Counted from the stretch's first letter, positions 1 through 38,452 are shown. The stretch: DNA of 64,000 bases from Escherichia coli (GCF_003018235.1 NZ_CP027437.1), one strand, 5' to 3'. Notes: generated from the letters alone by a model not told the origin. A program made the numbers and translations.

Positions 1-158
1 ATTTGTTCTACAATACCATATGACGCCCGATATTACGCCATACATAGAATATGACTACCTTGACCGTCAGGGTGTTTACAACGGCAGAGATAATTTATCG
101 GAAAACAGTTATCGCATTGGTGTGTCATTTAAACTGTAGTAGACAGGAGACAGTCACA

Positions 159-1265
159 ATGAATAAAACAATAACGGCGCTTGCTATCATAATGGCTTCA
201 TTTGCCGCAAACGCGTCTGTATTACCGGAAACTCCTGTGCCATTTAAAAGTGGTACCGGAGCAATTGATAACGACACTGTCTACATTGGTTTAGGTAGCG
301 CAGGTACAGCATGGTACAAGCTGGATACACAGGCCAAAGATAAAAAATGGACAGCGTTAGCTGCATTCCCTGGTGGGCCGAGAGATCAAGCAACCTCTGC
401 ATTTATTGATGGTAATCTGTATGTGTTTGGCGGCATTGGCAAAAACAGCGAGGGCTTGACTCAGGTATTTAATGACGTACACAAATACAACCCCAAAACC
501 AATAGCTGGGTTAAATTGATGTCGCACGCGCCGATGGGCATGGCGGGCCATGTGACTTTTGTACACAACGGCAAGGCTTATGTTACTGGCGGTGTTAACC
601 AGAATATCTTCAATGGCTATTTTGAAGATCTCAACGAGGCTGGAAAAGATTCAACCGCTATAGATAAAATCAACGCCCACTATTTTGACAAAAAAGCAGA
701 AGATTATTTCTTCAATAAGTTTCTGTTGTCTTTTGATCCCTCAACACAGCAATGGAGTTACGCTGGCGAATCTCCCTGGTACGGAACGGCTGGTGCGGCG
801 GTTGTGAATAAAGGTGATAAAACCTGGCTTATTAATGGCGAAGCCAAACCAGGATTGCGAACGGATGCCGTATTTGAACTTGATTTCACCGGTAATAATT
901 TAAAATGGAATAAGCTTGCTCCCGTCTCATCACCAGATGGCGTCGCTGGCGGTTTTGCAGGCATGAGCAATGACTCACTGATATTTGCCGGAGGGGCCGG
1001 ATTCAAAGGGTCACGGGAAAATTACCAAAACGGTAAGAACTATGCGCATGAAGGCCTGAAAAAATCATATAGCACTGATATTCATCTTTGGCATAACGGG
1101 AAATGGGATAAATCTGGTGAATTATCGCAAGGTCGGGCCTACGGAGTATCATTGCCCTGGAATAATAGTTTATTAATTATTGGCGGTGAAACTGCAGGCG
1201 GCAAAGCGGTGACGGATTCAGTTTTAATTTCTGTGAAGGATAATAAAGTCACAGTACAAAACTAA
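159..1265 (+). CDS. nanM: N-acetylneuraminate epimerase (Kelch-repeat, YjhT/NanM)
   Basis: ORF translation from MNKTITALAIIMASFAANA (signal peptide) matches NanM along its length; SD aggaga about 9 nt upstream of ATG at 159; the ORF-track start at 51 is an upstream extension. Confidence 0.9.
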   Translation: MNKTITALAIIMASFAANASVLPETPVPFKSGTGAIDNDTVYIGLGSAGTAWYKLDTQAKDKKWTALAAFPGGPRDQATSAFIDGNLYVFGGIGKNSEGLTQVFNDVHKYNPKTNSWVKLMSHAPMGMAGHVTFVHNGKAYVTGGVNQNIFNGYFEDLNEAGKDSTAIDKINAHYFDKKAEDYFFNKFLLSFDPSTQQWSYAGESPWYGTAGAAVVNKGDKTWLINGEAKPGLRTDAVFELDFTGNNLKWNKLAPVSSPDGVAGGFAGMSNDSLIFAGGAGFKGSRENYQNGKNYAHEGLKKSYSTDIHLWHNGKWDKSGELSQGRAYGVSLPWNNSLLIIGGETAGGKAVTDSVLISVKDNKVTVQN

Positions 1266-1329
1266 CGCTTCAGGGTCCCAGTAAAGGGGCCCTGCTATCA
1301 ATTTGTCATTTGTATTACGCGAAAATTAT

Positions 1330-2310
1330 ATGAACGCAATAATATCGCCCGATTATTACTATGTTCTTACCGTTGCTGGTCAGTCTAATGCCATGGCGTA
1401 TGGCGAAGGACTGCCATTACCGGACAGGGAAGATGCGCCTCATCCCAGAATTAAACAATTAGCGAGATTTGCGCATACGCATCCCGGAGGCCCGTCATGT
1501 CACTTTAACGACATTATTCCACTGACTCACTGCCCACACGATGTTCAGGATATGCAGGGTTATCACCATCCTCTGGCAACGAATCATCAAACACAGTACG
1601 GCACCGTTGGCCAGGCACTGCATATTGCACGGAAATTACTGCCCTTTATTCCTGATAACGCAGGGGTTCTCATCGTTCCGTGTTGCCGTGGCGGATCGGC
1701 TTTTACCGCGGGCAGCGAAGGGAAATATTCAGAACGGCACGGAGCCAGCCATGATGCTTGTCGTTGGGGAACGGATACTCCGCTATACCAGGATTTAGTC
1801 AGCAGAACGCGAGCCGCACTGGCAAAAAATCCGCAGAACAAATTCCTCGGCGTATGCTGGATGCAAGGCGAATTTGACTTAATGACCAGTGACTACGCGT
1901 CACACCCTCAACACTTTAATCATATGGTTGAAGCCTTTCGTAGGGAGCTAAAACAATACCATTCTCAGCTTAATAATATTACTGACGCACCGTGGTTTTG
2001 CGGCGATACCACCTGGTACTGGAAAGAAAATTTCCCTCATGCGTATGAAGCTATTTATGGCAATTATCAAAATAATGTTTTAGCCAATATTATTTTCGTC
2101 GACTTCCAGCAACAAGGTGCAAGAGGACTGACGAACGCGCCTGATGAAGATCCAGACGATTTAAGCACGGGATATTACGGTTCAGCGTACCGGTCACCGG
2201 AGAACTGGACGACGGCACTGCGAAGCAGTCATTTCAGCGCGGCAGCCCGTCGGGGGATTATTTCTGACAGGTTTGTAGAAGCAATTTTGCAGTTTTGGCG
2301 CGAAAGGTGA
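1330..2310 (+). CDS. nanS: 9-O-acetyl-N-acetylneuraminate esterase
   Basis: Translation from MNAIISPDYYYVLTVAGQSNA matches NanS (YjhS); follows nanM in the same orientation as in the nanCMS operon. Confidence 0.88.
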   Translation: MNAIISPDYYYVLTVAGQSNAMAYGEGLPLPDREDAPHPRIKQLARFAHTHPGGPSCHFNDIIPLTHCPHDVQDMQGYHHPLATNHQTQYGTVGQALHIARKLLPFIPDNAGVLIVPCCRGGSAFTAGSEGKYSERHGASHDACRWGTDTPLYQDLVSRTRAALAKNPQNKFLGVCWMQGEFDLMTSDYASHPQHFNHMVEAFRRELKQYHSQLNNITDAPWFCGDTTWYWKENFPHAYEAIYGNYQNNVLANIIFVDFQQQGARGLTNAPDEDPDDLSTGYYGSAYRSPENWTTALRSSHFSAAARRGIISDRFVEAILQFWRER

Positions 2311-2317
2311 GCGTTCA

Positions 2318-2518
2318 TTAATTTGATTTATTTGCATCCATTAGCGCTTTTAACTGCTCCGGCGTAAACGGTGGTTTGCGTCGGTGCAACATCGCATGGC
2401 AATTAGGGCACACAGGAAGCAAATCATTAACTGGATCCAGCTGGTAATCCTCTTTAATGGCTGAAAGCGGCACCAGGTGATGCACATTAAGCAATTTCAG
2501 AACCGCATGCTCATACAT
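2318..2518 (-). pseudogene. Short HNH-endonuclease-like ORF (66 aa), probably a truncated remnant
   Basis: Translation carries HH..P....N....CPNCH..H spacing typical of HNH nuclease cores but is far shorter than standalone HNH enzymes. Confidence 0.35.
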
Positions 2519-2577
2519 ATTTCCCCCTAAGTTTGCTCACTGCCTTTAATTTATGTCACAGGCAATGTAATTCACCT

Positions 2578-2649
2578 GAAGCTCATCTTGAATCTGTCCT
2601 TCTACTTAGTCATTACCCTACTGGCACAACCGACCTCAAGATGAGCTTC
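2578..2649. repeat. 14-bp perfect inverted repeat (gaagctcatcttga / tcaagatgagcttc) with 44-bp spacer
   Basis: Read directly from sequence, arms at 2578-2591 and 2636-2649; lies just 3-prime of the minus-strand gene ending at 2656. Confidence 0.6.
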
Positions 2650-2655
2650 TTACTT

Positions 2656-3264
2656 TTAACGATGTATCAGAACAATCTTGCGCCGGGAGAATAGCGTTTC
2701 CGCAGACAGCTGGAATTTATATTCCGCGGCCTTCAGCTTTCGCGATTTAAGCATTTTCATCGTGATACCCCTTATTTTCCCTGACTCAACCTGTCTCTTG
2801 ATTTCGCCGGTGCTCAGCATGAGCTGCTTTTGCAAAATCGACAGCAGGCTGACCTGAAACGAACGGGAAATCCTGACGCTAACCTTGACCCATTTGCCGG
2901 GAGAAAGGCTGGCTAACCACTGCTCCTGAATGCGAAAATCAGGCCGACCCGATAGCTCTGCGTTGTTCCGCTTCAGCATCGCGATATCACAGGAAAAATG
3001 TTGAACCGTGGCTGCATCGTTGCTCATCAGCCGGTTATGAAGTTCGCGGTCAATTTTGCTGACGTGCAGGCGCGAAAATAGGGAGATATTCCAGGTGTAA
3101 TCACAGTGTGTGCATTTATAGATACTCCACACGTCCAGCACCTTCTTTTGCGAATTAATCCGAAATGCACCTGATGGCGTGAAGTCCCGTTTAATGTTGC
3201 ATGAAGGGCATCGCTTCGCAATGCGCTGATACCCCACGGGCGTGACGGTCCATGTAACTTTCAT
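2656..3264 (-). CDS. Hypothetical protein with N-terminal CxxC...CxxC zinc ribbon and basic C-terminal region (202 aa)
   Basis: Long ORF with two CxxC pairs (CPSC, CTHC) and a K/R-rich C-terminus; no confident family assignment. Confidence 0.5.
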   Translation of the reverse strand: MKVTWTVTPVGYQRIAKRCPSCNIKRDFTPSGAFRINSQKKVLDVWSIYKCTHCDYTWNISLFSRLHVSKIDRELHNRLMSNDAATVQHFSCDIAMLKRNNAELSGRPDFRIQEQWLASLSPGKWVKVSVRISRSFQVSLLSILQKQLMLSTGEIKRQVESGKIRGITMKMLKSRKLKAAEYKFQLSAETLFSRRKIVLIHR

Positions 3265-3559
3265 AACCTACCTTTTTTAACCCATACAAAACCGGATCCG
3301 TACTGAACGGACCATGGATGTTTATGTATGAAAAATATTTAAGAGATATTTTTCAGAGGGTTAAAAAAAGATTTCCAACTATGCAATCCTGTCGGTGAGC
3401 AAAGAGATATAGCGAGACTATCAAAACGGCAATTATTGGGTATATGAGTTCAATCAATATTCATGATGGTTATGGCTTGTTCTATTGATCTGACACATTA
3501 AACACGGCGCATTAATTTTGTATGTTTTATGAACAACCCAACAACAAAAGGAGCGCGAT

Positions 3560-3811
3560 ATGACACAGCACGAACGGTTTTGTCAGGCCTGCGGAATGCC
3601 GATGTCCGCACCTGATGCGCAGGGGAGTAGCGATAAATACTGTGCATACTGCAGCGATAGCAACGGCAATCTTAAACCCTGGGAAGAGGCGGTATCAGGC
3701 TTGGCCAGCTTCCTTGATTCCTGGCAAAAAGTCGGTCCAGAAGAAGCACAGAAGCGTGCAAAACGTTATCTGACGGCAATGCCTGCCTGGGCTCATAAAG
3801 CGGACGAGTGA
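3560..3811 (+). CDS. Small zinc-ribbon domain protein (83 aa)
   Basis: CQAC...CAYC motif; strong SD aaaggag 8 nt upstream of ATG. Confidence 0.5.
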   Translation: MTQHERFCQACGMPMSAPDAQGSSDKYCAYCSDSNGNLKPWEEAVSGLASFLDSWQKVGPEEAQKRAKRYLTAMPAWAHKADE

Positions 3812-3875
3812 ATAACAAAGTCAGGGTGATTTAGGCAGTCTATCTTCACTCCGCTGATTCCATTAAGGAGAGCCG

Positions 3876-4268
3876 ATGTTTTCTCACATTATGCTTGGAA
3901 CCAACAACCTGCCACGCGCCATTGCATTCTACGATCCGTTGATGGATATGCTGGGGTATCCCCGCGGCGGCAGGAAGAGGAGATCGCATGGTGGGGCGTT
4001 TTCAACGGTAATAACACTACGGCACTGGGTATCAGTAGGCCATTTGATAAACAGGTTGCCACGACCCGAAATGGAGTGATGGTCGCCCTGATTGCGCGTT
4101 CTGCCGAACACATCCAGCAAGTTTCATGTGCTAGCTTTAAATCACGGTGGCACTGACGAGGGAGCACCTGGCCAGCGTCCGCATTACGGCGAAGGGTTCT
4201 ACAGCGCTTACGTCAGAGACACCGATGGCAACAAGCTGGCTTACGTTTATTACACCGCACAATCCTGA
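3876..4268 (+). pseudogene. VOC/glyoxalase-family gene disrupted by frameshifts
   Basis: N-terminus MFSHIMLGTNNLPRAIAFYDPLMDMLGY in frame 1 (SD aaggaga upstream); the rest of a VOC-like protein (ALGISRPFDKQVATTRNGVMVAL... and GGTDEGAPGQRPHYGEGFYSAYVRDTDGNKLAYVYY) continues in the other two frames, implying at least two frameshifts. Confidence 0.5.
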
Positions 4269-4512
4269 GAACGATAAAGCGGGGGCCTCAGCGCCCCCAC
4301 CTGAAACTAAACCGATCCCGCAGATGTCAATGAGCGTTGAACGAGTTGATAAATGCCGAGATGTCTGACTGTTTTTACGCCAGAACTCCATGGTGTGACA
4401 ACCATACACATACTCCCTTCTTGACACCTTTAAACCATTTAACCGCATGCCTCTGTCTGCCCTGCAGGGACGGCTGATGCCTGTGTGTTGTCTGGCGGTA
4501 AGGAACAATACT

Positions 4513-4674
4513 ATGTACGCAAAATCCTTTATCGCTCTCGACGGGAATGGTCGTCTGACCGGTGCCCGTACTGCGCAGACCGCCCCTTACGATCGTTATA
4601 CCTGCCACCTCTGCGGTAGCGTGCTGCAATACCATCCTGAATACATCACCGAACGCCCGTGCTTTGAACAGTAA
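4513..4674 (+). CDS. Small hypothetical ORF (53 aa, MYAKSFIALDGNGRL...)
   Basis: ATG preceded by aagga-like SD; contains CHLCGS motif; function unknown, could be a remnant. Confidence 0.25.
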   Translation: MYAKSFIALDGNGRLTGARTAQTAPYDRYTCHLCGSVLQYHPEYITERPCFEQ

Positions 4675-5266
4675 CCAACACACTGACAGAGGGCGGCGAA
4701 AATGCTTTATGCAAATCTTGATGCAAAGGCAGCCAGACGAATTCGTAAGTTACGCTTTTACGTGGCAGATACTCAAAGCAGACTGGCATTGTAGCGACGA
4801 TTGCCACGGTGAACGCTATTGTATGGCATGTAGTACCTGAGACTTCAGCCGCCCAGTAGATATAGCATCATGAAAAAACTGAAATGCTTTCTTGCCAACA
4901 ACTCACTGAGCTAGTATGCCTCCACCGATGTAACAATTAGAGCAAGCGTCAAAGTGCGAAACTGCCCTCACGTAGCTGCAAGTTAACACCAGGAAATCCT
5001 GGTTCAAACACGACCAGCTCTATGTTAGCGGCAAGCAATCGTTGAACTAAACGCATATGCAGCCGGAGATGAAAGTTAGGAAAAAAGCAGAGGCTGATAA
5101 GAATTATGCACGTTGAGCTGGGATCGTAATACCCCACTTAAAATGTACAAGGGGAGTAGTCTAATGATGTTAAATACGAACCTTCAGTATTGTTCATTCA
5201 CCAATTTTCCCATATTCTCTCATCATTAATATTCTCTGCCGAATTTTATAGGGCTAACTCGCTGAA

Positions 5267-5470
5267 ATGAATGACAAAGCTTTAACCTTGAAAGATGTGG
5301 TGGCTTACTTAAAGTTGGCAGAAAAAACAGCGTATAGGTTGACTAGCGAAGGCAAATTGCCGGGATTTAAGGTTGAAGGCTCATGACGCTTCAAACGAGA
5401 GGATTTAGATATGTGGATTGAAGGTCAGAAGACTCAAAGCTACCCGAGTATCACAAAATCCAATCGTGGT
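5267..5470 (+). pseudogene. Excisionase/AlpA-like HTH DNA-binding protein interrupted by in-frame TGA
   Basis: Translation MNDKALTLKDVVAYLKLAEKTAYRLTSEGKLPGFKVEGS*RFKREDLDMWIEGQ; the stop at 5384-5386 sits where this family has the conserved Trp of the GSWRF motif. Confidence 0.5.
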
Positions 5471-5666
5471 TGATCAAGTGGATAAACATGAAAAGTCGGT
5501 AGCCCTCAAAGGCCACTTGCCACATGCAGTGAAGCAAGCCGTTGTGCAAGCTCTACTGAAAGAAGGTGATATCGCCCGAACGTTGCTCAAGGATCCACAA
5601 GTTATGGCAAGTTATGTTGAGCTGATTTTCGACATGATGAAGCAGAATAAAAATATGAATATCTAA
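5418..5666 (+). CDS. Small hypothetical ORF immediately upstream of the ATPase gene (non-ATG start in ORF track)
   Basis: ORF-track call only; start is TTG/GTG with no convincing SD; overlaps the 3-prime end of the HTH pseudogene. Confidence 0.2.
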   Translation: MKVRRLKATRVSQNPIVVDQVDKHEKSVALKGHLPHAVKQAVVQALLKEGDIARTLLKDPQVMASYVELIFDMMKQNKNMNI

Positions 5667-5708
5667 AAGATTTTGGGCTATCTATTACGTTTTAAAATGA
5701 GATAAATA

Positions 5709-8246
5709 ATGATAAATGACCATGAAGAACTAGAACTTGCTAAAGCTCAGGCAAAAGAAATATGGAAGATCCTTGATTATGTTCGAGGAGCATCACCTAT
5801 ATCTAATTATCGCTCATTAGCGTATTCAATCTTCTTCGTACGCTATCTTCAATCCAATACAGGTCAGCATTTTGAGGCAGAAAGGTTCGACTCTTTTAAT
5901 GTCATCGCCCAGTATTCCTACGATCTTGTAAACTATGCCGTTCAACTTGGATTGATTCATAGCGACGTATCTAAATTCTTAATTTATTATTTAGAAAACA
6001 CACTCCGTTCATTTGTCAATATTGATGAGTCTTTTGTTCGTTATGCAATTAGAGATGGTCTACTCAATAAAACCCCTGCAATAGCGTCGCTTTCTTTATC
6101 AGAACTGGATTTACTTTTTGCCGAGAATGAAGGTAAGTCAGGAGGTGAGTTTTATACCCCTAGAGACGTCAACTTATTGGTTAAAATATTAGGATTGAGT
6201 TATCAACCAAAGTCAATATGTGACCCATTTGCAGGTGCTGGAAACACAGCATTTCCTTTTGCCAATACTGGTATTGAAAAAGTTAGGATTGATACTCAAG
6301 AAATTAATAGAGATGCTTACTTTAAACTAGTAATAAGTAGAGTCATCAGGAAAATAGAAGGTCGAGACTATTTCGGCGATTCCCTATCACAACCATTATA
6401 TCAAGAAAATAAATATGATCTGATAGTTTCTTTCCCACCTTTTGGCATGAAAATTCCTAAAGCCACTCGAAATAATATTTACTATAAAACAAGTAATAAG
6501 TGGCTGGATATTACTGAAATCTTGCCAGAAAGTAGAAGTGATTGGTTTATAACATTATCAATGCTTCCAGCCCTTTCTGAGGGGGGTAAGATACTAGTAG
6601 GTATGTCACTTGGGGCTTTGACAAGAGCAGGCTCTGAGGCAAAGGTTCGTGAGTATTTAGTCTCTCGCGGAATTATCGAACAAGTAATTCTTTTACCTAA
6701 AAATATTTATTACTCTACGGCTATCTCAACTGTACTTCTTGTCCTCAACTCAGGAACAAGTAACATAAATAACAGAAGTATTAAATTTGTAGATGCTTCA
6801 CTGTTTTACGAGCCTGCCCGTGGTCGAAACACCCTCACAACAAAAAATATAAATGAGATCGTAGAGGCTTGTCATAAAGATGGCCGATTTAGTATTAGTT
6901 CATCTCATACCCAAATAGCAAACAGAGACTTTAATTTAGATCCGTCTCTTTATGTACGTAAAGATCTCAAAATCAGTGAGGTTTCTTTAAAAAATTTTAG
7001 AGGATACTCTGACTTTAAAGTTTCGATACATCCTTCTTTAAATGTATTGGTTGGTGAGAACGGCGTCGGGAAAACTTCGATATTAGAAGCATTAGCATGT
7101 GGCCTTGGTCCTTTCCTTACTGCTATGCCTGATGCTAAAGGAAAACTGATAAAAAAATCAGATATCCATATAAGTTCAAAAGGAATCGCAAATTATGCTC
7201 GAATATCGATTGAAACAACATCAAGTTTAAGTTGGGATCTTGTGGCAAAGGGGGTTGATGTTTCCGAGCCCCCTAAGATAGGAACATCAGCATTAACTAG
7301 CTACGCTACTCATCTTGTAGATAGTCAGTCTGAATATCCACTCATTGCTTATTATGGGACTAACCGTGCTCTTACTTCTACCAGTTCTAAAGTTGCAATA
7401 AATCCATTCGAGAAAGAAAATCGTGGGGAAGGTTATGACTTTGCTTTAGATGCTAAAGTTAACTACGGCATCTTAAAGAACTGGTTTTCAAAAATAGAGG
7501 TTGATGAGCTTCGAAAACGTGATGAACTAAAAGACCATAAATTCATTCATCCGGCTAAGAGACTTGTTTCAGAGGCTGTTTACCAGATTGTTGATCGAGC
7601 TACATGCTTGGAGTTCGACAAAAATAGTAACGATGTTATGGTTCATTGGAAAAATGAGCAGGGAGAGTGCGTAAAGCTTACATTGGAACAACTAAGTGAA
7701 GGGTATAGAAATATGGTATCCCTGACCATTGACCTAGTGAGGCGTGCTTATTTACTTAATCCTACCAAACCGAAACCGCTAACAGTTAATGGGATCGTTT
7801 TAATTGATGAAATTGAACTTCACTTGCACCCTAGATGGCAGCAAAAGATTTTAAATGATCTTACTAAGCTGTTTAAGAATATTCAGTTTATTGTCACGAC
7901 ACATAGTCCTCAAGTCTTAACAACAATCAAAGCCGATTGTATCCGTATTGTTTCCGTCAATGCTAACGAAGCAAAATTAGTGACAGGAACTACTACTTAC
8001 GGTTCTGAAAGCTCAAGAATGTTGGAAGATGTTTTAGGTGGTAACAATCGCGCCCAACATCTTGATATTGTTAAAAAACTAAACCGTTATACAGAGTTAG
8101 TAGAGGCCGACAAATGGGATACCGATGAGGCATTAGAACTCAAAAAAGAGTTATATAAATGGGGTGGTCAGACAGAAGACGAGCTTCAAAAATTAGAAAC
8201 TGATATTCGAATTCGCGAGTTCGAGCGTGGCAATGAAAAAGATTAA
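5709..8246 (+). CDS. Fusion protein: N-terminal gamma-class N6-adenine methyltransferase-like domain plus C-terminal ABC-type ATPase (Septu PtuA-like)
   Basis: MTase-like motifs in order X-I-IV: EFYTPRDV (about aa 147), DPFAGAGN (about aa 172), SFPPFG (about aa 240). ATPase motifs: Walker A GENGVGKTS (about aa 449), Walker B VLIDEIELHLHP (about aa 695), TTHSP (about aa 730). AT-rich coding sequence. Confidence 0.75.
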   Translation: MINDHEELELAKAQAKEIWKILDYVRGASPISNYRSLAYSIFFVRYLQSNTGQHFEAERFDSFNVIAQYSYDLVNYAVQLGLIHSDVSKFLIYYLENTLRSFVNIDESFVRYAIRDGLLNKTPAIASLSLSELDLLFAENEGKSGGEFYTPRDVNLLVKILGLSYQPKSICDPFAGAGNTAFPFANTGIEKVRIDTQEINRDAYFKLVISRVIRKIEGRDYFGDSLSQPLYQENKYDLIVSFPPFGMKIPKATRNNIYYKTSNKWLDITEILPESRSDWFITLSMLPALSEGGKILVGMSLGALTRAGSEAKVREYLVSRGIIEQVILLPKNIYYSTAISTVLLVLNSGTSNINNRSIKFVDASLFYEPARGRNTLTTKNINEIVEACHKDGRFSISSSHTQIANRDFNLDPSLYVRKDLKISEVSLKNFRGYSDFKVSIHPSLNVLVGENGVGKTSILEALACGLGPFLTAMPDAKGKLIKKSDIHISSKGIANYARISIETTSSLSWDLVAKGVDVSEPPKIGTSALTSYATHLVDSQSEYPLIAYYGTNRALTSTSSKVAINPFEKENRGEGYDFALDAKVNYGILKNWFSKIEVDELRKRDELKDHKFIHPAKRLVSEAVYQIVDRATCLEFDKNSNDVMVHWKNEQGECVKLTLEQLSEGYRNMVSLTIDLVRRAYLLNPTKPKPLTVNGIVLIDEIELHLHPRWQQKILNDLTKLFKNIQFIVTTHSPQVLTTIKADCIRIVSVNANEAKLVTGTTTYGSESSRMLEDVLGGNNRAQHLDIVKKLNRYTELVEADKWDTDEALELKKELYKWGGQTEDELQKLETDIRIREFERGNEKD

Positions 8247-9021
8247 TAAGCTAGATGAGCCAAATCGGCTTGGTGTGTTCAAGGCTACTCATCCTAATGC
8301 TTTGTGGGAGAGGGATAAAAACTCAATTGAAGAGGCTTTCCGTTGTTGCATTGCCAGATATCAAGAAACTCTACAACAATTACGTACGGACCAAGGTAAT
8401 TTATGTGCATATTGTGAACAGGATTTAATGTCTGGAACTAATGGGGCATTAGATGACTGCCGTATTGAGCATTTTCATCCGAAATCTAAACGTGAACAGG
8501 GAGAACCTAATTGGGCTTTGGAATGGAGCAATTTGTTAGTTGTTTGCTGTGGCGGAAATCAAAGTAAAGTTGTTAATCCTGGGCAAAGATTTGATGCTGA
8601 TCCCAAAAATTACTCTTGCGATGTACCAAAGAGTGACAAAATTTTAGATACCATTATATTAAATCCACTTAATTTACCTGAATTAAATATCTGGAAGTTT
8701 CATCGTTCTTCGGGGCAAATTTCCGTAAATGAAGATTCCTGTTTAGAATTTGGTATAAGTGTTGAAATGGCACACCAAACAATTAAAGAATTGAATTTAA
8801 ATTCCCCTCGATTAATTAGATTTCGAAAGGCTATTCTAAATAATCTCAACATTTTAATAACAGAAAGGCTGAAGAAGGGACAAACGGTAGAGCAAGCTGT
8901 TAGATTTATTGCCATATCACTCTTTAGAAAAAATGGAGCAGGTGATTGGCCCTCTTTTTTTAGTGCAACACGATATTATTTAGGTCAGCAGGCTGAGCTT
9001 GTTTTAGCCCAACCTATTTAA
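8227..9021 (+). CDS. HNH nuclease (Septu PtuB-like)
   Basis: Motif CAYCEQD...DDCRIEHFHPKS...WSNLLVVCCGGN; start (GTG 8227 or ATG 8233) overlaps the stop of the upstream ATPase gene, indicating an operon. Confidence 0.7.
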   Translation: MAMKKINKLDEPNRLGVFKATHPNALWERDKNSIEEAFRCCIARYQETLQQLRTDQGNLCAYCEQDLMSGTNGALDDCRIEHFHPKSKREQGEPNWALEWSNLLVVCCGGNQSKVVNPGQRFDADPKNYSCDVPKSDKILDTIILNPLNLPELNIWKFHRSSGQISVNEDSCLEFGISVEMAHQTIKELNLNSPRLIRFRKAILNNLNILITERLKKGQTVEQAVRFIAISLFRKNGAGDWPSFFSATRYYLGQQAELVLAQPI

Positions 9022-9040
9022 CATACTTTCAACTAGTTAG

Positions 9041-9063
9041 AGAGGCTGCTTTTGGCAGCCTCT
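9041..9063. terminator. Hairpin between convergent operons (agaggctgcttttggcagcctct)
   Basis: Perfect stem agaggctgc/gcagcctct with T-rich loop, located between the stop at 9021 (+) and the stop at 9082 (-). Confidence 0.4.
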
Positions 9064-9081
9064 TGCAGAGTGCAGAATCGA

Positions 9082-10515
9082 CTACAGGGGCGATGCTAGC
9101 TCAGAGAACCAAGCGTGAACTGATCTGTAAAATGTGCTGATTGACCAAAACTCACTGCATGCAGCAACTAACAGAATGACCACTAAGAGGATCACTACAG
9201 TAGAAGTCATTCTTTCCACACGGCAGTATGATCCCATCGCATCTTTTACAGGTTGTCTAGCCAGTTCCTGATAATCCAGCTCATCCAGAAATCCGTATAA
9301 TTTAGTTCTCCAGGTGGTTCTAACTCTTTCAAGTAATGAAATTGTTTGCCTATTAATATAGACAGACATTCCATAGGAAATAACTATATAAACCGCGATA
9401 GCACAAAAAACCAAAGCGTAAATATTTTGCAAACCAACTGATTTTACTGCATCCAGACTGTAGCGAATAACCAAGACACTAATTACAAGAGCCATATCTT
9501 TCCATAAGGAAGAGGACAAATCTCGGGATTGCTGAATGATCTTTTGTGTATCTTCAGCCAGCGTTTTCCGCAAATCACCCAAGGATTTCATAGTATCTTT
9601 ACCACCAGTCCTGATATGGGCCTTATACATTAACCGTGCAGACTCCAAAGCTGATGAGAGTCGAAGCATCACTCCCTCACAAAAGTTCAGGTCTGAAGGC
9701 CACTCTCTAGCCAGCTCGCTGGACAAAAACGTATGTTTCAGCTCAGTTTCATTCCCCTCTAGAAAAATCCACTTTGCCGCTTCCTGGATAATATCAAAAG
9801 CAGGTAACGCTGCCGTCTCATCGCCGAATGCTATTTTTCTGGGAGGCTTTCCCGCAAGCCCCACCATCATTTCGTCAGCAAAAAAAAGTTCATTTGCAAA
9901 ACATTTCAGCAACTCTCGGCATCCTAGCAATTTCCATATCTTGATTGCTTCATCAGTCTTCTCACTACAAGTTTCAAGTATCCAAGGGGCAATGGCATCT
10001 GGAGGAAGAAAAGTTGTTGAATAACATTTGATGATACTTTTTGTTACTGAAGGCTTAGTGATAGCTGTTGCATCACCAGCACTCACCGGCTGTATCTCCT
10101 TCCATGGATGCACATACCAACTTATTGTCTGAAAGCCTTCAGTAATAAACAGCCCATAAATATGTTTGTACCGACAGAGTTTGCTATCTTGAAGTAAAAA
10201 AGTGCGCCATCCTTCTAAGGTAAAAAGCCTCAGTATCCCCGGAATTTCATTATAAGTGATGGTAATGTAGTGCTTCTGCCCTGGGACCCCCTCTCTCGGA
10301 TGAATAACATCTCTGCTCTCATCGATAAAAACGATCTTGAGATCTTCCGCATGTACATCCACTATTTCTCCCCATAAATCAAGGGATTCACTATCCATTG
10401 TGGCGGAAATAAAAAGCTTATGGATAGACACCTGCTGGTCCTCTGTGATCACAAGGTCAGATAAATGTCGTGAGTGGCATATAGCCTTACCGATTTTTTC
10501 CAATATCGATATCAT
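9082..10515 (-). CDS. Hypothetical protein with C-terminal transmembrane helices (477 aa)
   Basis: Long ORF; C-terminal hydrophobic segments (IYALVFCAIAVYIVISYGMSVYI and STVVILLVVILLVAACSEFWSI); 29-nt overlap with the upstream gene; no recognisable catalytic motif. Confidence 0.55.
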   Translation of the reverse strand: MISILEKIGKAICHSRHLSDLVITEDQQVSIHKLFISATMDSESLDLWGEIVDVHAEDLKIVFIDESRDVIHPREGVPGQKHYITITYNEIPGILRLFTLEGWRTFLLQDSKLCRYKHIYGLFITEGFQTISWYVHPWKEIQPVSAGDATAITKPSVTKSIIKCYSTTFLPPDAIAPWILETCSEKTDEAIKIWKLLGCRELLKCFANELFFADEMMVGLAGKPPRKIAFGDETAALPAFDIIQEAAKWIFLEGNETELKHTFLSSELAREWPSDLNFCEGVMLRLSSALESARLMYKAHIRTGGKDTMKSLGDLRKTLAEDTQKIIQQSRDLSSSLWKDMALVISVLVIRYSLDAVKSVGLQNIYALVFCAIAVYIVISYGMSVYINRQTISLLERVRTTWRTKLYGFLDELDYQELARQPVKDAMGSYCRVERMTSTVVILLVVILLVAACSEFWSISTFYRSVHAWFSELASPL

Positions 10516-11548
10516 CTGTTACCAATCCTGCAGTCACAATTACAATTCGTTTTCGCCCGTCTTCCATATTTTCTACTTCTGGTGCATTGTCTTCATCGTA
10601 GATAATGATTACATCTTCCAATGTTTCCAGTTTTCTCTTCCGGGGCTTCTGAATGTTATCGGGAATGATGCGGAAAGATTCACCTGAAATTCCTAAATCC
10701 TTTATTTTACGAAAAAAATACTTAACCAGAGGGTGTTCTTCCTCCAAAGGACCAAAAATCTGGGTCAACAATGGCAGTGCTTCATCAGTATTAAAATCCT
10801 GTTCGCCATGGCGTAAAGTTTCATAAATTTTGTTTACTCCGCTGCGCTTGATCTCTTCAGGTAGTAAGTTTCGATGCTTTTTATATACATCTTTTAATAC
10901 AGTAACTAGCTTATCGCTGAGCTGAGTTGGGTCATTGACGCGCTTAACCTGTAGAAATCGTTCAAAATAGACAGAGATGTTAGTACGTTTGCTGCGATCT
11001 CGTACGACAACTAATCCGCCCGGCAAATCTTCATTCAGCCGTACCAGTGCGATTTTCTGCATGGCTTCGGCTTTTTTAACGAAACTTTCGCGAAAGCGTT
11101 CGAGTTTAGGTACCTGAAACTCATCTCCTTCAACATCCAGCACATAACGGACTACATCTTCATTGTCATACTTAATCAACGCATACAGTTTCTCATCGTT
11201 GAGTGTATGAAGTTCAAAAAGGAAAAAAACGCCCATACTGGCATTCTTGGTATGGTGGTGAGACTGAAAATCGCTTGCCAATAAGGAGGATTGCTCAGTA
11301 AAGCAGCCGATATCGGTGTCTGCATGTTCCCTGATGATCCTCAGGATTCGCTCTGTATTTGACAACTCCTTAAAATGAAACATATTGCCACTAACTGCAG
11401 ATTTGATACGTTCCAGAAAGAAATCAACATGCTCCGGAGGGGAAATTTCGCTGAGTAAAACAGGGACTTCCAACTCACCGCCAACCACATGAAAAATCAT
11501 CCTTTTTATTGATAATGCATTGATTTCTTCATCCGTTAAAAAACTCAT
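10487..11548 (-). CDS. Hypothetical protein (353 aa), weak resemblance to NdpA/YejK-type nucleoid-associated proteins
   Basis: Long ORF first in a two-gene operon; size and scattered sequence patterns recall YejK, but this is an unverified impression. Confidence 0.5.
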   Translation of the reverse strand: MSFLTDEEINALSIKRMIFHVVGGELEVPVLLSEISPPEHVDFFLERIKSAVSGNMFHFKELSNTERILRIIREHADTDIGCFTEQSSLLASDFQSHHHTKNASMGVFFLFELHTLNDEKLYALIKYDNEDVVRYVLDVEGDEFQVPKLERFRESFVKKAEAMQKIALVRLNEDLPGGLVVVRDRSKRTNISVYFERFLQVKRVNDPTQLSDKLVTVLKDVYKKHRNLLPEEIKRSGVNKIYETLRHGEQDFNTDEALPLLTQIFGPLEEEHPLVKYFFRKIKDLGISGESFRIIPDNIQKPRKRKLETLEDVIIIYDEDNAPEVENMEDGRKRIVIVTAGLVTDDIDIGKNR

Positions 11549-11744
11549 TTTTATTTCTCAATATAGTGTTTATATTTACTACCGTGAGCCATCTTACCTA
11601 AGCGTAGAACGTGGCGGAAAACACGATAACATTATTGCATAGCTTACGGCGTAACTTATCCTCGCCCCAGACAGAATAAACGTCAAAATAAAATAATGAA
11701 AATATGATCGAGACAGCATTAGCTGCCCCGCTTTCTTAGACTTT

Positions 11745-12998
11745 TTACATTATTAGGGCAAAATCAAACGGACTCACCCCCTTCTCCCGATTCGCATCCA
11801 GATAATTTGCCCACCACTGCAGCATCAACCTACGCTCCCCAAGATGTTCCGCCTTATGGATGTATGCCGCCCGCACAGAGCTACGCTCCTGATGGCTCAT
11901 CTGCCGCTCCACTGCATTCCTCGACCACAATCCTGATTCAATAAGTGAACTACAGGCCATCGTCCTGAAACCATGCCCACAGACTTCCGTTTTGGTGTCA
12001 TAGCCCATAACTCGCAAAGCCTTGTTCACCGTATTCTCACTCATCGGCTTATGCGGATCGTGATCGCCCACAAAAATCAGCTCTCGATTTCCATTCATGC
12101 TTTTGATCTTTTCCAAAATAGCTAAGGCCTGCCGCGATAAGGGTACAAGATGGGGAGTTCGCATCTTCGAACCACGCTGAGAATGTTTAACACCGTCCAA
12201 CGGTTCACGCTCACCGGGGATCGTCCACATGGCCGTTTCAAAATCCACTTCTGACCAACGGGCAAAGCGCAGTTCGCTTGAACGGATGAAAACTAACAAA
12301 GTGAGTTCGACAGCCAGTCGAGTTAACGGCCTGCCGGAGTAATGATCAATGCGGTGAAGTAATTCAGGTATGCGGTTAAGCTCCAGAGCCGCACGATGCT
12401 GTCTTTTAGCAGTAGCAACCGCACCGGTAATCTCTTGCGCGGGGTTGTAGTCGATTAAGCCGCTCTGAACGGCAAAGCGCATAATCGCGGTAGTTCGCTG
12501 CTGTAAACGGGCGGCGACTTCAAGACGTCCGGATGACTCCACCGCTTTAATGGGTACAAGAAGATCCCGAGTCTTAAGCTCTGCAATGTTCCGCTTACCG
12601 ATAGCAGCAAAGAGATTATCTTCTAGGCTTTTCAATACACGAGCACTATGCGATGCAGACCACTTCTGATTACTGGCATGCCAGTCTCTGACGACCACTT
12701 CAAACGTTATCGCCTCTTGCTCCTGTTCTACCTTAACCGCTTTCTTGTTTTCACTGGGATCGACGCCGTTCGCTAAAAGCTTACGCGCTTCGTCTCGCCG
12801 CGATCGAGCATCAGCTAACGAAACTTCAGGATACTTCCCTAGCGCCAGCATCTTCTCTTTACCACCGAAACGATAACGAAGCCGCCAGTATTTGGAGCCG
12901 TTAGGGTGAACCAGCAAAACCATGCCTTCACCATCAGTAAGTTTATAGGCTTTTGCTTCAGGCTTTGCCGAACGAACCTTCACATCACTCAGAGCCAT
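11745..12998 (-). CDS. P4-type tyrosine integrase (IntB-like), apparently intact
   Basis: Translation MALSDVKVRSAKPEAKAYKLTDGEGMVLLVHPNGSKYWRLRYRFGGKEK... matches P4/CP4-like integrases and ends with a tyrosine-recombinase C-terminus; adjacent to tRNA-Leu 3-prime end. Confidence 0.85.
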   Translation of the reverse strand: MALSDVKVRSAKPEAKAYKLTDGEGMVLLVHPNGSKYWRLRYRFGGKEKMLALGKYPEVSLADARSRRDEARKLLANGVDPSENKKAVKVEQEQEAITFEVVVRDWHASNQKWSASHSARVLKSLEDNLFAAIGKRNIAELKTRDLLVPIKAVESSGRLEVAARLQQRTTAIMRFAVQSGLIDYNPAQEITGAVATAKRQHRAALELNRIPELLHRIDHYSGRPLTRLAVELTLLVFIRSSELRFARWSEVDFETAMWTIPGEREPLDGVKHSQRGSKMRTPHLVPLSRQALAILEKIKSMNGNRELIFVGDHDPHKPMSENTVNKALRVMGYDTKTEVCGHGFRTMACSSLIESGLWSRNAVERQMSHQERSSVRAAYIHKAEHLGERRLMLQWWANYLDANREKGVSPFDFALIM

Positions 12999-13196
12999 GA
13001 TGAATATCCTTTCAAGGGTTCTGTGTGGGTACAAACATTATCGAACCGGGATATACCCGCAGTTGTACCCGCATCAGTAAGTTGATGTAGATTGAATCAG
13101 GTTGACTTAGGTTGAGTGAAAAAGCGAGGAAAGCCTTGCGGATACTGGATTTCAGGCATAAAAAAAGACCTCAGTTGAGGTCTATTTACATACTTA

Positions 13197-13281
13197 TGGT
13201 GCCGAAGGCCGGACTCGAACCGGCACGTATTTCTACGGTTGATTTTGAATCAACTGCGTCTACCGATTTCGCCACTTCGGC
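13197..13281 (-). tRNA. leuX: tRNA-Leu (CAA)
   Basis: Reverse complement reads GCCGAAGTGGCGAAATCGGTAGACGCAGTTGATTCAAAATCAACCGTAGAAATACGTGCCGGTTCGAGTCCGGCCTTCGGCACCA, with cloverleaf features and a long variable arm. Confidence 0.9.
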
Positions 13282-13476
13282 ACTGAAGAGGTATGCGGAA
13301 AACGTTGTGGATTATACCTGTCGCACGCCACCATGCAAGCGCCAGCTTGCTCGCACCTCGCTAAGTGCTGAAATTTTCAGCATTGCATACAGTGATGTGT
13401 AACCTTTGTCACACTCCAGGCACCCCGCCCTGCCATGCTCTACACTTCCCAGACAACACCAGAGAAGGACCAAAAA

Positions 13477-38074: not shown

Positions 38075-38214
38075 AAGGAGTCCCTCCGCACTGTCTGAAA
38101 CAGTACAGAAATGTCTTCAGGCGTGGCGAAGCCTTACCTGAAGGTAATAAAGCTGAGCAGGGACGTTAAAACGTCACGGCCTTACGCATCCGGTAACGCC
38201 GTGAAAAGACGGGC
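38075..38214 (-). promoter_or_regulatory. mgtA leader (Mg2+/proline-responsive region downstream of mgtL)
   Basis: Position between mgtL and mgtA start; assignment from established knowledge of the mgtA leader. Confidence 0.5.
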
Positions 38215-38268
38215 TTACCGGAAAAGTTTTAATCTCCGTCGAGGGAGAGGCGTGGGATCAGGTTCCAT
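38215..38268 (-). CDS. mgtL: mgtA leader peptide
   Basis: 17-aa proline-rich translation [17 protein letters not shown] upstream of mgtA. Confidence 0.8.
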
Positions 38269-38452
38269 ATAACCTCCGGTAAGTGAAAAAAGCGCCGCAA
38301 ATAATAAGGAGAATCCAATAATATTCGTAGCATCTATGGCGATATAATACCTGCTGGCAACTAAACCAACGATAAACCAGACTTTACCCATTGCTGAATG
38401 CACGGGTAAAGTTAGGCTCAAATAATTAAACAACACGTTACGGGACAACAGG

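Follow-up and report, generated by a model that had tools for sequence, protein, structure and literature searches.

A Septu-type PtuA/PtuB pair with a fused, apparently inactive HsdM-like domain in Escherichia coli: a candidate sensor or decoy for phage anti-restriction activity

The fusion gene, its HNH partner and the HsdM-like domain

The 64,000-nt stretch of Escherichia coli DNA analyzed here (GCF_003018235.1 NZ_CP027437.1; hereafter the window, to which all positions refer) contains two overlapping genes. The first encodes a protein in which a domain similar to HsdM, the M subunit of type I restriction-modification (R-M) systems, is joined to the ABC-type ATPase PtuA, and the second encodes PtuB, an HNH nuclease (Table 1). 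The initial annotation had described an ATPase/HNH operon of the Septu type whose ATPase carries an N-terminal N6-adenine methyltransferase-like domain. Both open reading frames (ORFs) and all the motifs that it quoted are present, including EFYTPRDV (residues 147-154) and DPFAGAGN (residues 172-179) of the fusion protein. In its longest form the second ORF runs from a GTG (8227..9021, plus strand), its RefSeq relatives begin at the ATG at 8233, and from that ATG it overlaps the stop codon of the fusion gene (8244-8246) by 14 nt, in agreement with the overlap noted initially.

Table 1. Positions of the fusion gene, ptuB and associated features in the window.
Feature	Position	Strand	Basis or remark
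Fusion gene, pseudo-HsdM joined to PtuA	5709..8246	+	ATG start, 845 aa
Helical domain, HsdM N-terminal-like, aa 1-136	5709..6116	+	AlphaFold2 (AF2) model, Foldseek to 3lkd
N6_Mtase (HsdM catalytic) fold, aa 137-418	6117..6962	+	Pfam, EcoR124 HsdM match
Motif IV SFPPFG, aa 241-246	6429..6446	+	Phe242 at catalytic-Asn position
PtuA ABC-type ATPase, aa 420-845	6966..8243	+	PADLOC PtuA, PDB matches
Walker A GENGVGKTS, aa 449-457	7053-7079	+	Within PtuA part
Walker B	7794-7817	+	PtuA part; motif VLIDEIELHLHP at aa 697-708
H-loop TTHSP, aa 730-734	7896-7910	+	Within PtuA part
ptuB, HNH nuclease, 262 aa	8233..9021	+	From ATG 8233; PADLOC PtuB, TIGR02646
HNH core C58-x2-C61 ... H80 ... N100 ... C105-C106-G-G-N	8404-8559	+	Within ptuB
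Conserved cassette leader	5441..5708	+	Homology to Klebsiella locus begins at 5441
Upstream gene remnant ORF	5418/5478-5666	+	C-terminal 81 aa of 146-aa Klebsiella ORF
P4-type tyrosine integrase	11745..13034	-	Context only; Arm-DNA-bind_3 + Phage_int_M + Phage_integrase (Pfam)
tRNA-Leu(CAA), leuX-type insertion site	13197..13281	-	Context only; ARAGORN, Rfam tRNA

By sequence, the pair is a Septu-type (PtuA/PtuB) module, as had been proposed. The PADLOC PtuA profile matched residues 420-843 over profile positions 1-435 of 436 (E = 4.7e-106), the Pfam ABC-type ATPase families AAA_23, SMC_N, AAA_15 and AAA_21 span residues 421-750, and among PDB sequences PtuA of retron Ec83 and of Septu (9e8z, 8ee4) matched the C-terminal half at ~1e-40 (8ee4, E = 2.7e-40). 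The Walker A and B residues are invariant across 63 full-length homologues. The second protein matched the PADLOC PtuB profile (E = 1.9e-100), passed the cut-off of TIGR02646, the NCBIfam model for retron-system HNH proteins (83.6 bits; cut-off, 52.15), and was matched by Ec83 PtuB among PDB sequences (E = 2.5e-23), which upholds the HNH assignment. Its H80 lies opposite the His that is changed to Ala in the Ec83 PtuB mutant structure 9o4a, and the CxxC, EH and N positions are kept in 11 PtuB proteins of related loci. In an AF2 model of the fusion protein built from 38 homologues (predicted local distance difference test score, 83; predicted template modeling score, 0.74), the C-terminal half matched PtuA structures and the N-terminal half matched HsdM 3lkd in Foldseek searches, so that structure prediction bears out the two-fold architecture.

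Septu systems have the same two proteins in the same order, i.e., an ABC-type ATPase with Walker A and B motifs followed by an HNH protein with the conserved His and Asn, and no reverse transcriptase (RT). Canonical PtuA proteins are ~420-550 residues long, whereas the PtuA described here carries ~420 additional N-terminal residues that make up the HsdM-like module. The fusion family is also tied to type I R-M operons, and such linkage was not found reported for Septu in the literature searched. The nearest sequence and structure relatives of both proteins, nearer than stand-alone Septu, are the PtuAB proteins of type I-A retrons (Ec78/Eco7 and Ec83/Eco4), but both proteins score below the corresponding NCBIfam equivalog cut-offs (PtuA, NF041760, 329.1 vs. 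500; PtuB, NF041761, 127.4 vs. 150). An RT gene is absent from the RefSeq annotation of a near-identical locus, and an Rfam scan found no retron RNA in the island. In type I-A retrons the sensor is the complex of RT and multicopy single-stranded DNA (msDNA), while the presumed sensor here is a fused protein domain. PARIS (AriA/AriB) and HEC-01 are likewise pairs of an ABC ATPase and a nuclease, but their nuclease is of the Toprim or DUF4276 type instead of HNH, and the similarity to AriA is local (E ~9e-7 over 49 residues). The MAD3 ATPase equivalog of MADS scored 40.1 bits, below its cut-off of 420. In a separate protein (P0075, 1160 residues) a SIR2_2 domain is joined to a PtuA-type ATPase, which is another N-terminal accessory domain on PtuA.

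The N-terminal half of the fusion protein has the gamma-class HsdM-like fold that the initial annotation had assigned to it. Pfam N6_Mtase matched over model positions 17-305 of 311 (E = 7.3e-42), EcoR124 HsdM matched the N-terminal half among PDB sequences (E = 6e-30), and the Foldseek alignment to HsdM 3lkd extends over ~470 columns. Residues 5-142 are all-helical in the AF2 model, and residues 1-136 are the most variable part of the fusion, with a mean pairwise identity of 41% and a ratio of non-synonymous to synonymous substitution rates (dN/dS) of 0.30. The alignments to HsdM stop at residue 475 of 520 in EcoR124 HsdM and at residue 475 of the 542-residue 3lkd chain, and PtuA begins, at residue 420, two residues after the HsdM alignment ends. 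In EcoKI, it is the C-terminal region of HsdM (~residues 470-529) that contacts the coiled coil of HsdS (PMC2647291). Thus, the fusion shares with type I HsdM the N-terminal helical domain and the gamma-class catalytic fold with motifs X, I, II and III, but it has FPPF in place of NPPF/Y and is without the C-terminal HsdS-binding region; the TIGR00497 hsdM equivalog scored 122.4 and did not reach its cut-off of 242.75. When residues 1-419 were compared with 1.84 billion representative sequences, scores fell from 283 bits within the family to 128 bits for ordinary HsdM proteins, the nearest of which are at most 34% identical, which shows the domain to be a clade on its own.

We noticed that SFPPFG, which had been read as an intact motif IV, lacks the catalytic residue. 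In HMMER alignments to 7bst, 3lkd and 7vru, the Asn of NPPY/NPPF stands opposite Phe242, and the 63 full-length homologues have F (56), L (4), I (1), C (1) or N (1) at this position; the Asn is retained only in the deep-branching P0067 (SNPPFG), so that the residue is hydrophobic or Cys in 62/63. By comparison, 122 of the 141 nearest HsdM-like proteins outside the family have N (114), D (6) or S (2) there. In the fusion family motif X (FYTP), motif I (D172-P-F-A-G176), motif II (E198) and motif III (D/N224) are invariant or nearly so: D172, P173, G176, E198, P243 and P244 do not vary, and position 224 is either D or N. It has been reported that changing NPPF/NPPY to APPA stops methylation by type I M subunits (PMC5100572). 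FPPF as the mark of a subunit for N4-methylcytosine (m4C) was ruled out, as m4C type I subunits keep NPPY (PMC5100572). Given that the catalytic Asn is lost family-wide while the motifs for S-adenosylmethionine (SAM) stay conserved, the HsdM-like domain is most likely a conserved, SAM-binding pseudo-methyltransferase that is catalytically dead, and the retained motifs suggest that it probably binds SAM. Between the E. coli and Klebsiella copies, dN/dS is 0.086 for the N6_Mtase domain, 0.076 for PtuA and 0.16 for PtuB, and the low value for the N6_Mtase domain shows that it is under purifying selection.

Distribution of the family and its type I R-M neighbors

The fusion of two folds, which had been singled out as unusual, is real but not a one-off: the family comprises at least 68 clusters at 90% identity, nearly all of them annotated as "N-6 DNA methylase," a RefSeq label that is probably wrong as a functional statement. 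The hosts belong to the Gamma- and Betaproteobacteria and include Enterobacterales, Aeromonas, Vibrionaceae, Shewanella, Pseudoalteromonas, Plesiomonas and Undibacterium. Plasmid and phage collections yielded no full-length copy, and ptuB follows the fusion gene at every locus examined. No characterised homologue was found, and neither the HsdM::PtuA fusion nor its linkage to R-M was found described in the literature searched, which lay mostly outside subscription journals, so that an earlier description is possible.

Genomic contexts were gathered homologue by homologue for 12 informative lineages picked for diversity, a sample that is not exhaustive and to which one metagenomic contig, too short to judge, was not assigned. 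A complete type I R-M system adjoins the pair in 7 of the 12, and in six of these seven the R-M genes lie directly upstream on the same strand, usually with hsdR directly before the fusion gene. The order is hsdM-hsdS-hsdR-orf146-fusion-ptuB in Klebsiella, where the fusion is 96% identical to that of the window; hsdM-gmrSD-hsdM-hsdS-hsdR-fusion-ptuB in Shewanella, Undibacterium and Moritella, where the hsdR stop codon overlaps the fusion ATG; hsdMSR-mcrBC-fusion-ptuB in V. parahaemolyticus; and mrr-hsdMSR-fusion-ptuB in Pseudoalteromonas, while in Plesiomonas the type I operon is convergent with the pair. No hsd genes were found within 8-10 kb of the pair in E. coli, Pantoea, Aeromonas, Serratia and P. 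damselae, which suggests that the module can function, or at least persist, alone. The sampled lineages with fusions at most 62% identical to the query are all linked to R-M (6/6). Thus, the absence of HsdR and HsdS partners, to which the initial annotation had drawn attention, holds for the window, but it is confined to the E. coli copy and some near relatives and does not define the family.

At least five unrelated families are represented among the neighboring R-M systems, whose HsdR proteins are only 20-31% identical, while the fusions are 45-67% identical to one another, which indicates that the linkage is recurrent and was not inherited as a block. NPP[FY] is kept in every neighboring HsdM. 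In the type I systems of Shewanella, Undibacterium and Moritella (L007, L009 and L010, ~1-8000), a GmrSD gene separates two hsdM genes, and the S-proximal M subunit has NPPY; an organization with two hsdM genes and NPPY was reported for type I systems with m4C and N6-methyladenine (m6A) modification (PMC5100572). The HsdR proteins of these three are 80-86% identical across the divide between gamma- and betaproteobacteria.

In addition to the HsdM::PtuA family, there is a small sister family, with members in Photobacterium, Vibrio and Pseudoalteromonas, in which PtuA is joined to an entire HsdS (P0069, P0231-P0234). HsdS::PtuA occupies the hsdS slot of its operon, the order of which is half-hsdS - hsdM - hsdS::ptuA - ptuB - hsdR - YgjP-like protease in Photobacterium carnosum (L017, 10001-12550). 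The PtuB proteins of this family are without the zinc-finger cysteines. An independent fusion, P0090 (L019, 752-3639), joins an HsdM-like domain with IPPF to a HEC-01A ABC ATPase and is followed by a DUF4276 gene; no R-M genes adjoin it on its short contig. As parallel architectures, the HsdS::PtuA and HsdM-like::HEC-01A fusions strengthen the case for a recurrent linkage.

Possible roles of the HsdM-like domain

We propose, with a probability of about 0.45, that the pair is a Septu effector gated by a fused pseudo-HsdM that acts as a sensor or decoy and reports phage anti-restriction activity or loss of SAM. The proposal starts from direct observations, namely the domain architecture, the loss of the catalytic residue with SAM motifs retained, the purifying selection and the recurrence beside type I R-M systems that are unrelated to one another; SAM binding, the nature of the trigger, its coupling to PtuB and the substrate of PtuB are what we infer from them. 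The anatomy fits the logic of a guard best, because a dead but conserved HsdM is fused where the PtuA of retrons meets its regulator, and because this arrangement recurs at the end of unrelated type I operons.

The PtuAB proteins of Septu form an ATP-inhibited complex that nicks DNA, retron Eco4 PtuAB cleaves single-stranded DNA, and in type I-A retrons RT-msDNA keeps PtuAB off until a phage nuclease destroys the msDNA (PMC12640716, PMC11555353, PMC13096335). That the nearest relatives of the pair are retron I-A effectors suggests that this branch of PtuAB is habitually paired with a separate sensor or antitoxin module. In the proposed mechanism, the ATPase would have acquired, as an N-terminal sensor, a type I HsdM subunit no longer able to methylate. 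At rest, the PtuA-PtuB complex would be inactive, with ATP inhibiting it as in characterized Septu and the SAM-loaded pseudo-HsdM adding a second layer of restraint. Oligomerization of PtuA would gather at least two HsdM-like modules, whose N-terminal domains could form a clamp like that between two HsdM subunits. On arrival of a phage weapon against type I R-M, i.e., a DNA mimic of the Ocr/ArdA kind, an Stp-like peptide or the destruction of SAM, the pseudo-HsdM would bind the inhibitor or lose SAM, and the resulting conformational change would release or activate PtuB. PtuB would then cut nucleic acid, which may be tRNA-Tyr or DNA as with other PtuAB pairs, and the infection would be aborted. 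An integrated decoy that serves as a backup of restriction would explain why the family is found at the 3' end of type I R-M operons. More tentatively, a dead copy of a methylase may be wired to a Septu effector and tripped directly by anti-restriction weapons, with HsdS::PtuA and HsdM-like::HEC-01A as parallel inventions.

Such a role would have precedents. PrrC, an ABC-ATPase-linked anticodon nuclease embedded in EcoprrI, is freed by the T4 peptide Stp (bioRxiv 10.1101/2024.01.29.577857, 10.1101/2023.04.06.535777). Like the fusion pair, PrrC/EcoprrI combines an ABC-ATPase-type NTPase with a nuclease in or beside a type I hsd operon and steps in as a backup once restriction is inhibited by a phage, but in PrrC the anticodon-nuclease domain is part of one polypeptide, which sits non-covalently on the R-M enzyme, whereas the pair has a separate HNH protein and a built-in copy of HsdM; no sequence membership in PrrC was found for the fusion pair. 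Ronin consists of an HsdMS decoy and the toxin RonA and is set off by Ocr, ArdA and Aop1, with no requirement for its methyltransferase activity (bioRxiv 10.1101/2023.04.06.535777). As we propose for the fusion pair, it baits anti-restriction proteins with a derivative of type I R-M, but with separate HsdS and HsdM, an intact NPPF and a 61-residue membrane toxin in place of a degenerate HsdM fused to the effector ATPase and an HNH toxin. In PARIS, the ABC ATPase AriA senses Ocr (PMC11464382). The position of an effector beside a type I hsd operon, as with PrrC and Ronin, is not seen at the window and is seen in the seven linked contexts and in the HsdS::PtuA family.

Several points weigh against the proposed sensor or decoy. 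All the evidence is computational, and the trigger, SAM binding and toxicity are predicted. Loss of catalysis is deduced from a hydrophobic residue at the first position of motif IV. Ocr and ArdA are enfolded by HsdS together with two HsdM subunits (PMC2647291), so that binding may fail for an HsdM-like domain that lacks HsdS. The linkage count comes from the 12 lineages chosen for diversity, five of which, the window included, carry the cassette without an adjacent R-M system. Moreover, unrelated defense genes are often embedded in R-M operons, perhaps by co-transfer only (bioRxiv 10.1101/2024.01.29.577857).

An unlikely reading, though the best of the alternatives, is that the module is an autonomous variant of Septu. 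The pseudo-HsdM would then be a nucleic-acid sensor unrelated to anti-restriction, into whose hydrophobic FPPF pocket a DNA base is flipped, so that it reports phage DNA, e.g., unusual or N6-methylated adenines or replication intermediates, and the adjacency to R-M would reflect embedding in defense islands only. Stand-alone Septu needs no R-M, the compact two-gene cassette of 3.5 kb moves into non-defense contexts in Aeromonas, Serratia and P. damselae, and the fusion keeps the HsdM residues that surround a flipped base. The adenine flipped by EcoKI is held between aromatic residues (PMC2647291), and an additional Phe could favor a methylated base. However, HsdM alone does not recognize DNA without HsdS, and PADLOC and Pfam profile searches found no target-recognition domain in the fusion. 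Such a sensor would also leave unexplained the linkage to five unrelated type I families and the HsdS::PtuA fusion.

It is distinctly improbable that the fusion is an accessory subunit of the neighboring type I enzyme, which would take the place of one HsdM on HsdS, or attach to HsdR, and thereby direct PtuB, as a second, translocation-independent restriction nuclease, to unmethylated sites. The overlap of hsdR with the fusion gene in three lineages is consistent with this, as is the sister family, whose operon has no full-length S subunit other than HsdS::PtuA, but the HsdM region that contacts HsdS is absent from the fusion, one fusion family would need to dock onto at least five unrelated R-M families, and orphan copies are under equally strong purifying selection.

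Still lower is the chance that the cassette in E. coli is a non-functional leftover of a larger R-M-linked island, which has lost its partners and has not yet decayed. The upstream gene is truncated at the breakpoint at 5441, the cassette occurs in only 2 of 5426 complete E. coli genomes, and a promoter and terminator scan gave 11 promoter-like sites vs. 13.2 expected, i.e., no promoter signal above chance, and 0 terminators. Against this, both ORFs are intact, dN/dS relative to Klebsiella is 0.08-0.16 over the three conserved parts, and the orphan arrangement persists in four other genera. Finally, an active N6-adenine methyltransferase, i.e., a compact R-M-like pair in which methylation shields host DNA from PtuB, as was essentially implicit in the initial annotation, would accord with the full-length N6_Mtase fold, the conserved SAM motifs and the SNPPFG of P0067, but is very improbable given the missing Asn in 62/63 members, the lack of a target-recognition domain, the TIGR00497 score below cut-off and the effect of APPA on type I M subunits (PMC5100572).

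The PtuAB pairs characterized so far are controlled by ATP or by a retron partner, and a natural trigger is known for few of them. With a candidate sensor in the same polypeptide as the ATPase, the fusion family makes the question of what triggers Septu directly accessible through a few known anti-restriction genes. If the pseudo-HsdM is indeed a decoy, the theme of immunity that watches over restriction, as in PrrC, Ronin and PARIS, would extend to Septu, with a fused decoy that parallels the integrated decoys of plant nucleotide-binding leucine-rich repeat receptors, and the position of such genes at the ends of type I R-M operons would be explained.

The E. coli copy and its island

Homology to the Klebsiella locus extends from 5441 to 9087 at 95.5% identity, while homology to Pantoea, Aeromonas and Serratia begins at 5502-5596 and ends at 8997-9040. 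These boundaries delimit a compact cassette of ~3.6 kb with its own leader of 110-270 bp. The last ~17 nt before the fusion ATG stay conserved across genera, and a conserved element, AATGAGATAAA, lies just ahead of the ATG. No hsdS or hsdR partner was found at the window locus, and the copy is an orphan derived from a Klebsiella-like arrangement, as its leader holds the C-terminal remnant of Klebsiella orf146. In a near-identical E. coli genome an EcoAI-family hsdRMS operon lies ~55 kb distant, and the orphan cassette would act either in trans beside the host's own type I system or autonomously.

The remnant ORF (5418-5666) is conserved as a protein in E. coli, Klebsiella and P. damselae and weakly matches the C-terminus of the PADLOC candidate PDC-S15 (E = 4e-6). 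It was considered as a third component and rejected, as its frame is broken in Aeromonas, Serratia and Pantoea. Deletion of hsdMSR mediated by an IS3 insertion sequence was likewise rejected: the window is without that insertion sequence, and 3958-4630 differs from the ISEc31 segment of the related genome CFSAN018748. The breakpoint at 5441 adjoins a truncated 39-residue helix-turn-helix gene (5267-5386, plus strand), which is AlpA/excisionase-like by eye, and a frameshifted VOC-family gene lies at 3876-4268.

The setting in an AT-rich island beside a P4-type integrase was recovered as initially described, from the GC content (0.36-0.39 across 5.5-9.5 kb vs. 0.50-0.55 beyond 12 kb of the window), the domain architecture of the integrase and the tRNA-Leu(CAA) gene. 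An att-type direct repeat of the tRNA 3' end was not found within 1-13400. Two overlapping genes on the minus strand lie between ptuB and the integrase gene (9082-10515 and 10487-11548). The former, an ORF of 477 residues, has no Pfam and no PADLOC match and was rejected as a member of the system because it is not conserved beside the cassette in other genera; the latter, a nucleoid-associated protein in the RefSeq annotation, is not conserved there either. A 16-nt direct repeat (TGTGGCGGAAATCAAA / ...ATAAAA) occurs at 8548-8563, in the CCGGN codons of ptuB, and at 10399-10414, in the 477-residue ORF on the other strand, and is probably a chance match. Elsewhere in the window, the Rfam models above gathering score are the small RNA Ysr276 (19296-19490), Magnesium-II, a Mg riboswitch (38168-38283), and naRNA4 (55187-55263), all on the minus strand.

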